DNA of 32,000 nucleotides from an uncultured Actinomycetes bacterium (lineage in GTDB: Bacteria > Actinomycetota > Actinomycetes > S36-B12 > CAIYMF01), in assembly GCA_963843975.1 (NCBI GenBank), contig CAWJMG010000001.1, positions 720,001 to 752,000 on the forward strand, read 5' to 3'. This document shows positions 25,877 to 29,878 of the stretch, piece after piece. The notes under the pieces were generated by a model, which worked only from the letters and a program-made list of their open reading frames with translations, was not told the origin of the DNA and searched no databases. Each line of letters begins with the position of its first letter. Position 1 is the first letter of the stretch. Position numbers and translations under genes: made by a program.

Positions 25877-27118
25877 ATGAAGCTCGCAGACATGCTGGCT
25901 CTGGTGGTCGGGCCGGACGTCGACATCACCATGACCGCGTACGACGGGAGCCGGCACGGACCGGCCGACTCGGACGTGCGCATGGACATCAGGTCGCCGC
26001 GCGCGGTGTCGCTGCTGATGTCGGCACCGGGGCAGCTCGGCCTCGCGCGCGCGTACGTCGCCGGCGAGCTCGAGGTGCACGGCGACCTGTTCACCGCGCT
26101 CGACCGTCTCGCGCGGCTCGGCGTCGAGGAGCCGACGCTTCGCGAGAAGCTGCGGCTCTACCGCGCGCTCGCGCCGTTCGCGCTGCGCCGCGAGCCACCG
26201 CCGCCGGAGGAGGTGCGGCTCGGCGGCGGCGCGCACTCCAAGCGCCGCGACGCCGACGCGATCCAGCACCACTACGACGTGAGCAACACGTTCTACCGGT
26301 GGGTGCTCGGCCCGTCGATGGCCTACACGTGCGCGGTCTACCCGAAGGTCGACGCGACGCTCGAGGAGGCGCAGGAGGAGAAGTTCGACCTCGTGTGCCG
26401 CAAGCTCGGGCTCTCCCGCGGCGACCGGCTGCTGGACGTCGGGTGCGGCTGGGGCGGGCTCGTCCTGCACGCCACGAAGCACTACGGCGTCAAGGCGATC
26501 GGCGTGACGCTGTCCGAGCGTCAGGCGGCGTGGGGGCGCGAGGCGATCGAGCGCGAGGGTCTCGGGCACCAGGCCGAGATCCGGCACCAGGACTACCGCG
26601 ACGTCGCCGAGCGCGGCTTCGACGCCATCTCCTCGATCGGTCTCACCGAGCACATCGGGTTCGCCAACTACCCGGCGTACTTCTCGTTCCTGCACTCACG
26701 GCTGAACCCGACTGGGCGCCTGCTCAACCACTGCATCACCCGCACCGACACGAACTCGCGCACGATCTACCAGGACGGCTTCATCAACCGGTACGTGTTC
26801 CCCGACGGCGAGCTCGTGCCCGTGGGGCGCATCGTGTCGGCGATCGAGGATGCGGGCTTCGAGGTGCGGCACGAGGAGAACCTCCGCGAGCACTACGCGC
26901 TCACGCTCGCCGCATGGTCGCGCAACCTGCTCGACCACTGGGACGAGGCCGTCGCGGAGATCGGAATCGGCAAGGCGCGGGTGTGGAAGCTCTACCTCGC
27001 GGCGTCCCAGATGGGCTTCCACCGCAACATGATCCAGCTGCACCAGGTGCTCGCCGTGGCCCCCGACGACCACGGCCACGCCGACGTCCCCCTCCGCCTA
27101 GGCCTCGACCGCCCCTAG
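25877..27118 (+). CDS. bfaB: Cyclopropane-fatty-acyl-phospholipid-synthase-family SAM methyltransferase (10-methylene-stearate forming)
   Basis: GAAGGAGG lies 8 nt upstream of the ATG. CFA-synthase family motifs are HYDVSNTFYRWVLGPSMAYTCAVY, the SAM-binding LLDVGCGWGG, and FINRYVFPDGEL. Confidence 0.85.
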   Translation: MKLADMLALVVGPDVDITMTAYDGSRHGPADSDVRMDIRSPRAVSLLMSAPGQLGLARAYVAGELEVHGDLFTALDRLARLGVEEPTLREKLRLYRALAPFALRREPPPPEEVRLGGGAHSKRRDADAIQHHYDVSNTFYRWVLGPSMAYTCAVYPKVDATLEEAQEEKFDLVCRKLGLSRGDRLLDVGCGWGGLVLHATKHYGVKAIGVTLSERQAAWGREAIEREGLGHQAEIRHQDYRDVAERGFDAISSIGLTEHIGFANYPAYFSFLHSRLNPTGRLLNHCITRTDTNSRTIYQDGFINRYVFPDGELVPVGRIVSAIEDAGFEVRHEENLREHYALTLAAWSRNLLDHWDEAVAEIGIGKARVWKLYLAASQMGFHRNMIQLHQVLAVAPDDHGHADVPLRLGLDRP

Positions 27119-27190: not shown

Positions 27191-28000
27191 CTAGCCGAGG
27201 ATGCCGGGGCCGGCGTTGTCGAGGCCGCCGTCGGCGGTGATGGTCGTGCCGGTGATGTAGTCGCCGGCCGGGGAGGCGAGGAAGCCGACCAGCGCCGCGA
27301 CCTCGTCGGCGGCCTGCATGCGCGGGAGCGGCACGATGCTCGACAGGATGCCGGTGTCGATGCCGTACTTCGAGATCGCCTCGGTGTGCACGAAGCCCGG
27401 CGCGATCGCGACGACGCGCACGCCGCGCGGCCCCCACTCGACCGAGAGCGTGCGGGTGAGCGACTCGACGGCGGCGCGCGCTGCGGACGAGTGCGCCATG
27501 CCCGGCGTGCCGCGGTGCGGCGACATCGTGATGCTGATGACCTTGCCGTAGCCGTTCGGCAGCATCGAACGCTCGGCGACCCGCGCGGTCATGTACCAGG
27601 TCGCGTCGAGATTGAGGCGCGTCACCGCACGGAACCCCTTGTGCGACAACGTCTCTGCAGGCGATACGAACTGCCCGCCTGCGTTGTTCAGCAGGATGTC
27701 GATGCGCCCGAGATCGGCGAGCACGGCATCGAGCAGGACGTCGACCTGCTCGGGCTCGCGTACGTCGCACACCGCGATGCTGATGGCCTCGGCGTACCCG
27801 GCCTCGGCGCCGAGCCGCGCGGTCTCCTCGAGCTTGTCGGCCGTTCGCCCCACGACGCAGACGCGCGCGCCCATCCGCGCGAGCAGCAGGGCGCTCGCGC
27901 GACCGATGCCGCTGCCACCTCCACTGACAAGAGCGGTACGCCCCGTCAAGGAGCCGTCGGCGAGGACTGCGAGGACATCGGGGCGCGTGGGAACCGTCAC
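27191..28000 (-). CDS. SDR-family oxidoreductase, PECR/DECR-like (enoyl-CoA reductase type)
   Basis: 269 aa from a GTG at 28000, which forms a GTGA overlap with the upstream stop. Motifs: TGRTALVSGGGSGIGRA and NNAGG. The active-site region reads MAHSSAARAAV in place of YxxxK, as in peroxisomal trans-2-enoyl-CoA reductase-type SDRs. Confidence 0.85.
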   Translation of the reverse strand: MTVPTRPDVLAVLADGSLTGRTALVSGGGSGIGRASALLLARMGARVCVVGRTADKLEETARLGAEAGYAEAISIAVCDVREPEQVDVLLDAVLADLGRIDILLNNAGGQFVSPAETLSHKGFRAVTRLNLDATWYMTARVAERSMLPNGYGKVISITMSPHRGTPGMAHSSAARAAVESLTRTLSVEWGPRGVRVVAIAPGFVHTEAISKYGIDTGILSSIVPLPRMQAADEVAALVGFLASPAGDYITGTTITADGGLDNAGPGILG

Positions 28001-28944
28001 GCGTCGAAGGGTAGGGGCCCGGGGGCGAATGCGCGGCGAAGCACCCCGGATGCCACCTGCAGCCCCGCGCGCAGGCCGCCGTCGAGCGCGACCGCGCCGA
28101 CCAGCGCCTGCACCTCGTCGGCCATCGCACGCCGGTCGTCGCGGTCGTCGTGACGCCGCTCGAGCCCGAGCTCCTGCGCGCGCACCGCCATCGTCGCGTT
28201 CGACGTCGTCCCGCGGCGCTCCTCGCTGAGCAGCGCCTCCGTGGCCTCGGGCTCCTCGACGTACTGAGCCGTCGACATCGCGGCCTCGATCACCGAGTCG
28301 CCCACCACCGCGAGCCGGCGGCGCGTCGGGCCGGCGAGCGCGGCGGCGCCGAACCACACCGGGTCCACGGGCTCGTGCCCGAGCGTGCGCGCCGCGGACT
28401 CGTAGCGGACGGCCCGCTCGGCCGAGGGCAGATCCGTACGCCGCGGCAGCCCGTCCAGCGCCGCGCGCACCACGAGGTCGTAGGCCGCCGCAGCGGCGTC
28501 GTCGATTCCGCGGTCGACCCAGATCGCGCCGATCGAGGCCTCGATGCGGTCGGCGAGGCGGTGCTTGGAGGCTGGGAAGGTCCGCACCGCGGGCAGGCCG
28601 CGGCGGGCGGCCACCCGGCCGAGCGCGTGGTCGGACACCATCGCCTGCTGCTCGCCGTTGATGAGCGCGAGCGAGGTCTCCTCCCACGGCTCGAGGCGCA
28701 CCAGCTCGAGGACGACGACGGCGTCCAGGATCGAGTCACCGACGTACTCGAGCCGCTGGAACAGATGCCCGCGCGGGTCGATGAGGGCCCGCACGAGGTC
28801 CTCGCGTCCGAGCGTCACACCCAGGGCGTGGTCGAGCGTCGCCACGTCGTCAGCGGCGAGTCCGGTGAGCGCCGCGCGCCAGGTCGTCACGGGCGACCAT
28901 GCTGGCGCATCCGGCCTCCACCGTCGCGCGCGCCGGGCCGACAC
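27997..28944 (-). CDS. Protein with two tandem RNase III catalytic domains, no dsRBD
   Basis: Domain 1 has RLEYVGDSILD and LADRIEASIGAIWVD. Domain 2 has RLAVVGDSVIE and MADEVQALVGAVALDGG. The start is uncertain (listed GTG at 28944, or an in-frame GTG 18 codons downstream). Confidence 0.8.
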   Translation of the reverse strand: MSARRARRWRPDAPAWSPVTTWRAALTGLAADDVATLDHALGVTLGREDLVRALIDPRGHLFQRLEYVGDSILDAVVVLELVRLEPWEETSLALINGEQQAMVSDHALGRVAARRGLPAVRTFPASKHRLADRIEASIGAIWVDRGIDDAAAAAYDLVVRAALDGLPRRTDLPSAERAVRYESAARTLGHEPVDPVWFGAAALAGPTRRRLAVVGDSVIEAAMSTAQYVEEPEATEALLSEERRGTTSNATMAVRAQELGLERRHDDRDDRRAMADEVQALVGAVALDGGLRAGLQVASGVLRRAFAPGPLPFDA

Positions 28945-29029
28945 GCGGCCCGGGCAGGACGAAGGCGGCCCGCACGGGGGATGGCAGGCCGCCTTCGTCG
29001 ATCAGGGGAGCGCAGGGCTCGGACGCGGG

Positions 29030-29665
29030 TCACACGCGGACGCGCGCGACCTTCCACGACGAGGTCCAGATGCGCTCGAGCATCACGCGCTTGCCGGGGT
29101 ACGGCGAGTGCCAGATGTAGCCGTTCCCGGCGTAGATCGCGACGTGGTAGATCCGGCCGCTGGAGGAGTAGAAGAAGACGAGGTCGCCCTTGACGGCCTT
29201 GCTCTTCTTGATCGGGATCGCCCACGCGTACTGGTCGCGCGAGACGCGCGGCAGCGAGATGCCGAGGCGCGAGTACACGTAGCGCGTGTAGCCCGAGCAG
29301 TCGAAGCCGGTCGAGGGGCTCGTGCCGCCGGCGCGGTAGGCGATCCCCTTGAAGCGCATAGCCGTGGCCACGGCCGCCTTGCCGCGGACGACCGGGTCGG
29401 CCTTCGCGGCGGCGCTCAGCTTCACGAAGCCGGTGCGGGCGGCCGGCAACGAGTACGTCGCGGTCGGCGCCGTCGTGACGGCGGTGGTGGACGACGACAG
29501 CGACGACGTCGTGAGCGTCGTCGTGCTGACCGAGGTCTCGGTGATGGTCGAGGTGCCGGTGTCCGAGGGCACGGCGGCCGAGGCCGGGGCCGTGAACGCG
29601 GGCAGCAGCGTGAGCGCCAGGGCAGCCGAGACGGCCGCGCCGAGGCGCGCGCGAGCAGACGCCAT
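29030..29665 (-). CDS. Secreted NlpC/P60 (C40) peptidoglycan endopeptidase
   Basis: 211 aa from MASARARLGAAV (ATG 29665, with GGAGG 6 nt upstream). It has a signal peptide ending ASA-AV and a Ser/Thr-rich linker. The NlpC/P60 core is GFDCSGYTRYVY (catalytic Cys) ... YHVAIY (His). Confidence 0.9.
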   Translation of the reverse strand: MASARARLGAAVSAALALTLLPAFTAPASAAVPSDTGTSTITETSVSTTTLTTSSLSSSTTAVTTAPTATYSLPAARTGFVKLSAAAKADPVVRGKAAVATAMRFKGIAYRAGGTSPSTGFDCSGYTRYVYSRLGISLPRVSRDQYAWAIPIKKSKAVKGDLVFFYSSSGRIYHVAIYAGNGYIWHSPYPGKRVMLERIWTSSWKVARVRV

Positions 29666-29680
29666 GAAGTCCTCCACGAC

Positions 29681-29846
29681 GCCTGCGAGGTGAGCTGTCG
29701 GGTTCGGGTCGTGGATTGACCCGGCCGGTCCGGGGACCGGCTTCACCCCGAGGGCTCGCCGTGCGGCGAGGCCCGGAAATCCTGGGTCCCCCGCTCCTGC
29801 CAGCGAGGTCATGACCGGGGGCGACTGGCAGGACTCGGCGTCCACC
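29681..29846 (-). promoter_or_regulatory. ydaO-yuaA (c-di-AMP) riboswitch
   Basis: The minus strand reads, in order: ...GAGUCCUGCCAG...CUGGCAGGAGCGGGGGACCCA...CGGGGUGAAGCC...CCGGGUCAAUCCACGACCCGAACCCGACAGCUCACCUCGCAGGCG. This reproduces the ordered conserved blocks of the ydaO motif, including the 3' CCGACAGCUnACCUCGnAnGCG box. It ends 16 nt before the NlpC/P60 start. Cell-wall hydrolases are a classic actinobacterial target. Confidence 0.7.
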
Positions 29847-29878
29847 CTCGGCGCCCGTCGGGTGACGGGCCGTGACGG

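Follow-up and report, generated by a model that had tools for sequence, protein, structure and literature searches.

The 32,000-nucleotide stretch analysed here (the window) belongs to contig CAWJMG010000001.1 of an uncultured Actinomycetes bacterium, has a G+C content of ~72% and carries on its minus strand, between genes for an NlpC/P60 hydrolase and a short-chain dehydrogenase (SDR), a gene whose product contains two RNase III domains (RIIIDs) in a single chain. The open reading frame (ORF) in which these domains were first noticed spans 27997-28944 in the ORF list, opens with GTG and translates into 315 amino acids (aa). Its strand was not stated in the initial annotation, and its 5' end is too long by 18 codons: nearly all close homologues are ~295-300 aa long and in 9 of 9 extracted orthologous genes the start codon, GTG or ATG, is the equivalent of V19, so the true gene is most likely 27997-28890, encoding 297 aa. 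This 297-aa protein is identical to one annotated in public assemblies (P0001), one of which is a 1.4-Mb NCBI contig, and the G+C content at third codon positions (GC3) of the gene, 0.94, is typical of a genuine high-GC actinobacterial coding region. The 18-codon extension begins directly 3' of a 13-bp GC hairpin that trails the upstream gene. The gene and its parts are as follows, with residues numbered on the 315-aa frame unless P0001 is named.

27997-28890, minus strand: gene encoding the RNase III tandem protein (297 aa), running from a GTG start to a TGA stop (from the ORF translation and the orthologue starts)
28891-28944, minus strand: in-frame stretch of 18 codons, probably 5' untranslated region and non-coding, missing from nearly all close homologues
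28507-28758, minus strand: RNase III domain 1, catalytically intact by its residues (Pfam core aa 63-146, 35.1 bits, E=2.5e-8)
28075-28317, minus strand: RNase III domain 2, conserved and pseudo-catalytic (Pfam core aa 210-290, 35.6 bits, E=1.7e-8)
28378-28434, minus strand: inter-domain linker (~aa 171-189), the least conserved segment (from pairwise identity and the structural model)

The Pfam model PF00636 (Ribonuclease_3) matched two separate stretches of the protein, and each half, when scanned alone, scored above the gathering threshold of 27 bits, which places both halves in the RNase III superfamily and bears out the two non-overlapping domains claimed in the initial annotation. As also claimed there, a domain for binding double-stranded RNA (dsRBD, PF00035) is absent, and the Pfam scan found no further domain of any kind in the protein. 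Aligned with each other, the two domains are 28% identical (E=7e-8).

Residue equivalences were mapped by alignment to E. coli RNase III, the codons were checked in the DNA, and conservation was assessed in 84 close homologues of 50-100% identity. The E. coli residues E38/E41/D45/E65/D114/E117 correspond to Q63/E66/D70/L92/D132/E135 in domain 1 and to R209/A212/D216/E236/D276/Q279 in domain 2. The codons of the catalytic positions, with conservation in the alignment, are listed below.

28747-28749, minus strand: E66, GAG, equivalent of E. coli E41 (84/84)
28735-28737, minus strand: D70, GAC, equivalent of E. coli D45 (84/84)
28549-28551, minus strand: D132, equivalent of E. coli D114 (84/84)
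28540-28542, minus strand: E135, equivalent of E. coli E117 (84/84)
28309-28311, minus strand: A212, GCG, at the E41 position (A in 84/84)
28297-28299, minus strand: D216, GAC, at the D45 position, variable (N 50, D 32, I 1, T 1)
28117-28119, minus strand: D276, at the D114 position (D in 84/84)
28108-28110, minus strand: Q279, CAG, at the E117 position (Q in 84/84)

The catalytic acidic tetrad is therefore complete and invariant in domain 1 and incomplete in domain 2. These assignments agree exactly with those made from the sequence in the initial annotation, and the alanine and glutamine substitutions that it singled out in domain 2 proved to be universal among the close homologues. The aspartate that it described as retained at position 216 is present in this protein, but asparagine replaces it in 50 of the 84 close homologues, so that the second site is more degenerate than had been supposed. 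Because A212, D276 and Q279 are invariant, the dead second half-site is, on the evidence of the alignment, a fixed and inherited feature. In RNase III, E117 jointly coordinates the two catalytic metals and is essential for function (PMC3867540), and among the structural matches described below is PDB 1yz9, an Aquifex RNase III E110Q mutant with double-stranded RNA (dsRNA) bound, in which E110Q is equivalent to Q279. The canonical E..LS..R...SN signature (E236, S240, R243, R244) is kept in domain 2, as would suit a domain that still contacts RNA.

Purifying selection acts on the two domains to a similar degree, and domain 2 is being maintained: the pairwise ratio of non-synonymous to synonymous substitution rates (dN/dS) was 0.18-0.36 for the whole gene, 0.17-0.42 for domain 1 and 0.13-0.31 for domain 2, and mean pairwise identity was 0.68 in each domain and 0.49 in the linker. 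A pseudogene, or a domain 2 in decay, was rejected on the dN/dS values and the equal identity of the two domains. Conservation also reaches beyond the RNase III cores, to the motifs xxWRxxL at the N-terminus (W22, R23, L26) and APGP at the C-terminus (G309, P310; window 27997-28035, minus strand), which may be packing or partner-binding elements.

An AlphaFold2 (AF2) model of the protein, made with 83 homologues in the alignment, is all-helical, with a predicted local distance difference test score (pLDDT) of 92.4 and a predicted TM-score (pTM) of 0.92; its linker consists of non-helical segments (P0001 146-160 and 170-176) with a short helix (161-169) between them. In a Foldseek search against the PDB, the top ranks went to Drosha, DCL1, Dicer, DCL3/4 and Giardia Dicer, with query-normalised TM-scores (TMq) of 0.60-0.68 over ~270-410 columns, whereas single-domain bacterial RNase III chains covered only half of the model, at TMq ~0.39. 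A second AF2 model, of a 31% identical protein from another subfamily (P0245; pLDDT 87.4, pTM 0.86), likewise gave TMq values of 0.55-0.68 to Drosha/Dicer-type cores and 0.36-0.40 to single-domain RNase III. Since the two domains superpose at once only in that arrangement, they are predicted to be arranged like the intramolecular RIIIDa/RIIIDb dimer of Drosha and Dicer, in keeping with the earlier expectation that the whole chain would pack as an RNase III dimer. Thus the pairing of RIIIDs into a catalytic valley, which is characteristic of the superfamily, and the tandem RIIIDa/RIIIDb intramolecular dimer, which is characteristic of Drosha and Dicer, are both found here as predictions only (AF2, Foldseek).

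In a structure search of BFVD, giant-virus proteins named 'ribonuclease III' and 540-620 aa long (A0A3G5AGS1 from Satyrvirus, A0A2H4UV56 from Bodo saltans virus and A0A481YRQ0 from Marseillevirus) matched the whole two-domain model at TMq 0.62-0.65 and, judging from these superpositions, look like tandem-RIIID pseudo-dimers as well; no phage protein matched the two-domain model in that search.

The family is a real one; it is rare, conserved and uncharacterised. A word-indexed search returned 89 relatives, nearly all ~296 aa long and from metagenomes or metagenome-assembled genomes (MAGs) of Candidatus Nanopelagicales, under no other names than 'ribonuclease III domain-containing protein', 'dsRNA-specific ribonuclease' or 'hypothetical protein'. 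When 1.84 billion cluster representatives were searched exhaustively with HMMER, no more than 25 clusters reached E<=1e-10, including proteins of 240-330 aa that are 25-40% identical and align across both domains. The pattern of one live and one dead domain also occurs in ~25 distant two-domain relatives and at further loci: 24 of 25 distant relatives retain the tetrad of domain 1, and in domain 2 the distant relatives have A/V/R/G/S at the E41 position, D/G/A/T/S/C at the D45 position and Q/R/L/K at the E117 position. A scan of 185,579 species-representative genomes placed the close family in at least ~11 Nanopelagicales or 'Actinomycetota' MAG species and distant two-domain members in at least ~8 further Actinomycetota genomes; a cultured carrier of a distant member is Geodermatophilus pulveris DSM 46839 (L014, 7896-8765), and the other matches listed in the scan were ordinary enzymes with an RIIID and a dsRBD. 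Among the matches listed, the close family was found only in Nanopelagicales-type actinobacterial MAGs, and the wider superfamily of live-plus-dead tandem proteins occurs in other Actinomycetota. Carriers of the gene include near-complete MAGs with contigs of 0.4-1.7 Mb, such as JAXLSG010000003, CAWAKP010000005 and CAVQFE010000002. No description of a bacterial tandem-RIIID protein was found in the literature searched, which misses most subscription journals, and this result, together with the rarity of the family and its generic names, is in line with the remark in the initial annotation that no characterised bacterial family of such a layout was recognised. The computational checks suggested there all had the expected outcome, and its interpretation is supported to the extent that computation allows.

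A few database entries depart from the common architecture. Three longer proteins, P0103 (503 aa), P0134 (517 aa) and P0133 (1016 aa), have a ~150-aa insert between the live and dead domains, plus C-terminal extensions, and appear from their sequences to be an elaborated branch of the live-plus-dead superfamily. Members in a Candidatus Helarchaeota MAG (L024, 7920-8654) and a Candidatus Heimdallarchaeota MAG (L057, 458-1243) could be genuine or could reflect MAG binning error. In three entries (P0086, P0089 and P0095) the RNase gene is artefactually joined to its SDR or NlpC/P60 neighbours, and at one locus (L011, 8825-12338) the neighbouring genes are split into many frames; the frame breaks are consistent with indel errors of MAG assembly, not with real fusions.

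A 2021 review divides RNase III enzymes into four classes, of which class I holds all bacterial enzymes, both RNase III and Mini-III; enzymes of classes I and II have one RIIID per monomer, two are found only in Drosha and Dicer (classes III and IV), and RNC1 serves as its example of inactive RIIIDs (PMC8708148). With two RIIIDs, no dsRBD, one dead site and an intact domain 1, the tandem protein fits none of these classes. Against TIGR02191, the NCBIfam equivalog model for rnc, it scored 57.6 bits where the cutoff is 166.25, which sets it apart from class I. Canonical rnc products share the fold and the catalytic tetrad of domain 1, but they have a dsRBD where the tandem protein has a second, dead RIIID. 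Mini-III (B. subtilis YazC/MrnC) is likewise a bacterial member of the family that lacks a dsRBD; however, it is a homodimer of single RIIIDs with two live sites, unlike the tandem protein. Like Drosha and Dicer, the tandem protein has two RNase III domains per chain and a predicted intramolecular dimer, and its best whole-chain structural matches are to them. Drosha and Dicer, however, are eukaryotic proteins of 700-2000 aa with two catalytic sites and PAZ, helicase, CED and dsRBD modules, whereas the bacterial protein consists of bare tandem domains within 297 aa, has one dead site and occurs in Actinomycetota hosts, and thus lacks the two competent RIIIDs, the accessory modules and the eukaryotic host of classes III and IV. 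We conclude that it varies the architecture of a well-known enzyme superfamily in a new way and is not a categorically new system.

In a profile comparison with the PDB, the E-values for Drosha/Dicer (~1e-9, a value that benefits from each target having two domains) were similar to that for Campylobacter RNase III (8e-9), and no Mini-III structure was among the matches at E<=1e-3. A specific kinship with Mini-III or with the eukaryotic Dicer/Drosha proteins was rejected on these grounds. Because sequence similarity to Drosha/Dicer does not exceed that to bacterial RNase III, there is no sign of a shared duplication, and sequence profiles provide no evidence that the bacterial duplication descends in common with the eukaryotic one.

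Enzymes of the RNase III superfamily characteristically depend on Mg2+ to cleave double-helical RNA and produce 5'-phosphate and 3'-OH ends. The catalytic valley of RNase III requires two RIIIDs, and each half-site cuts one strand. We consider it roughly 60% probable that the tandem protein is a single-chain pseudo-dimer with one live site that nicks duplex or structured RNA. It would act as a stand-alone, dsRBD-less endonuclease of the RNase III family in which domains 1 and 2 pair within one chain, forming the same catalytic valley as a bacterial homodimer or the RIIIDa/RIIIDb pair of Drosha and Dicer. Two Mg2+ ions would be bound and RNA hydrolysed at the domain 1 half-site only, while domain 2, from which two glutamates (plus, in the majority of homologues, one aspartate) have been lost, would be under selection as an obligatory dimerisation and RNA-docking partner. 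Each binding event would then cut one strand, leaving a nick in a duplex or in the stem of a structured RNA rather than a staggered double cut. The substrate would probably be a specific cellular RNA, recognised in the manner of Mini-III, which cuts 23S pre-rRNA site-specifically with the aid of ribosomal protein L3 (PMC3867540, PMC8708148), and the enzyme would not be a general degrader of dsRNA; a specific structured RNA is favoured over bulk dsRNA because the protein lacks both a dsRBD and a conserved partner gene.

Two known systems make single-strand cleavage plausible by analogy. In the trypanosome editosome, a live RIIID is likewise paired with a conserved dead one, the endonucleases KREN1-3 being joined by the degenerate RIIIDs of KREPB6-8 (plus KREPB4/5), and this pairing is thought to confine the cut to the mRNA strand of mRNA-guide RNA duplexes (PMC3867540). 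The editosome proteins, however, pair in trans, carry zinc-finger and PUF/RAM modules and work within a 20S mitochondrial complex, whereas the bacterial domains are joined in cis in a stand-alone protein. E. coli RNase III heterodimers that were engineered to contain one inactive subunit also have one functional site per RIIID dimer; they keep their activity and nick dsRNA (PMC3867540; heterodimers of wild type and catalytic mutant are credited there to Meng & Nicholson 2008 and Conrad et al. 2002). These are artificial two-chain enzymes that keep their dsRBDs, whereas the tandem protein is natural, fused and free of a dsRBD.

Three considerations weigh against the single-chain nicking enzyme. 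Both strands could still be cut at the one active site if the enzyme bound twice in succession, AF2 cannot separate intramolecular pairing from domain-swapped dimers, and the packing that it predicts may be biased towards the known Dicer/Drosha structures on which it was trained. The first of these corresponds to an ordinary, slower dsRNA-degrading RNase III paralogue, whose single site would make a double cut by rebinding in the opposite orientation. A regular duplex is pseudo-two-fold, so either strand could enter the live site, and nothing in the sequence enforces a choice of strand. Nevertheless, A212 and Q279 are strictly kept in all 84 close homologues and the domain 2 of distant relatives is degenerate in other ways, which suggests that the asymmetry itself is selected and is hard to square with a double cut; we therefore regard this explanation as unlikely.

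It is also decidedly unlikely that two chains dimerise through their first domains to give a canonical two-site RNase III, with domain 2 acting as an RNA-binding or regulatory module in place of the dsRBD. Characterised bacterial RNase III enzymes are all homodimers (PMC8708148), and the signature retained in domain 2 could bind RNA, but two independent AF2 models of high pTM place domain 2 against domain 1 in a Drosha/Dicer-like manner, and the linker is short, with low conservation. A role in binding or chaperoning RNA without catalysis has a precedent in chloroplast RNC1, which has two RNase III domains per chain with degenerate catalytic residues, performs no catalysis and promotes group II intron splicing, and the tandem protein, with no dsRBD and one dead domain, is similar in outline. 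RNC1 is, however, plant-specific and wholly inactive, whereas the tetrad of domain 1 is intact here, and its retention in 84 of 84 close and 24 of 25 distant homologues would be unexpected in a pure binder, making such a role very unlikely.

A more far-reaching version of the single-chain nicking enzyme, which we put forward tentatively and consider doubtful, would make it a natural strand-selective RNA 'nickase' acting on an antisense or small RNA-target duplex, or on a precursor stem, with the dead half-site holding and sparing the other strand. The protein would then be a bacterial single-chain counterpart of the guide-sparing endonucleases of the editosome, a fused pseudo-dimer whose origin is not demonstrably related to that of Drosha/Dicer, and an unclassified class of bacterial RNase III.

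In the textbook view, bacterial RNase III has one catalytic domain per chain and works as a symmetric homodimer, and the two-domain fusion is a eukaryotic invention (Drosha/Dicer). The tandem family presents the fused layout in bacteria with asymmetry built in, one half-site being live and the other dead and conserved as such. If it does nick RNA, it would be a minimal natural dsRNA-nicking enzyme of ~30 kDa, useful as a tool, as well as a simple model for how RNase III is held to a single strand by a pseudo-enzyme partner, a restriction that has been proposed in the trypanosome editosome. It would also point to an RNA-processing step, so far unknown, in Actinomycetota of fresh water and soil that are abundant but uncultured, and the cultured G. 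pulveris, carrying a distant member, opens the way to genetics.

The features that surround the RNase gene in the window are as follows.

27191-28000, minus strand: SDR gene (Pfam adh_short) downstream of the RNase gene; its GTG start overlaps the RNase TGA stop (GTGA)
28895-28915, minus strand: GCATG(C/G)T motif, at the same position in L002-L010, standing where a Shine-Dalgarno sequence is expected
28950-29000, minus strand: perfect 13-bp GC-rich hairpin, GACGAAGGCGGCC...GGCCGCCTTCGTC, devoid of a T-run, in the interval from the NlpC/P60 stop to the RNase gene
29665-29850, minus strand: cyclic di-AMP (c-di-AMP; ydaO-type) riboswitch RF00379, 62.2 bits against a gathering score of 38

The overlap of the SDR and RNase genes suggests that the two are probably co-translated in the window. 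Such overlap or abutment is restricted to the closest relatives (the window/L001, L002 and L010), and the genes are separated by a gap in more distant orthologues. In all Nanopelagicales loci the gene order is DtxR-(GGDEF)-NlpC/P60-RNase-SDR, followed by convergent genes for a cyclopropane/mycolic-acid synthase (CMAS) and an FAD-oxidoreductase. Distant family members lie instead among unrelated core genes (CarD-IspDF-CysS, RecR-GNAT, TrkA, GFO/IDH), and the Geodermatophilus gene has yet another set of neighbours. A conserved functional partner or operon was therefore rejected: the Nanopelagicales block is the gene order of a narrow clade and, since distant members have unrelated neighbours, is not evidence of a functional operon.

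PADLOC gave no defence match for the RNase or for the adjacent SDR and NlpC/P60 proteins, and with core genes as neighbours a defence-system reading was set aside. A mobile defence or toxin nuclease is accordingly highly improbable: the rarity and patchy distribution of the family, and the tandem RIIID proteins that giant viruses also encode, would fit one, but they are set against the PADLOC result, the strict, vertical-looking synteny among core genes in all Nanopelagicales loci, the position of distant members amid core genes (CarD-IspDF-CysS, RecR, TrkA) and the lack of a phage match in the structure search. With no recurrent partner, no PADLOC match and no sign of mobility, the RNase gene has the look of a housekeeping gene that stands alone and is inherited vertically, and the role of its product may be one in housekeeping RNA processing. 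PADLOC did match, as 'mad2' (E=1.5e-19), the CMAS-like methyltransferase at 25877-27118 on the plus strand (PF02353), which is probably a generic methyltransferase similarity and not a defence gene.

The GCATG(C/G)T-containing motif lies ~8-15 nt 5' of the RNase gene start and recurs across orthologues; within the window, an out-of-frame upstream ORF of 16 codons begins at the ATG of the motif and overlaps the start of the RNase gene. The terminator and promoter scan found no sigma-70-like promoter and did not call the 13-bp hairpin, which has no T-run, as a terminator. Strong hairpins of differing sequence occupy the same place in most orthologous loci, though not in L008, where the genes are ~20 nt apart, and the hairpin may be a terminator without a U-tract or a processing site. 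The RF00379 riboswitch lies directly 5' of the NlpC/P60 gene, whose true coding region is probably 29030-29665, the 271-aa ORF at 29030-29845 over-extending into the riboswitch. The RNase gene is the next gene downstream on the same strand and would come under c-di-AMP control if it is transcribed by read-through from the NlpC/P60 transcript.

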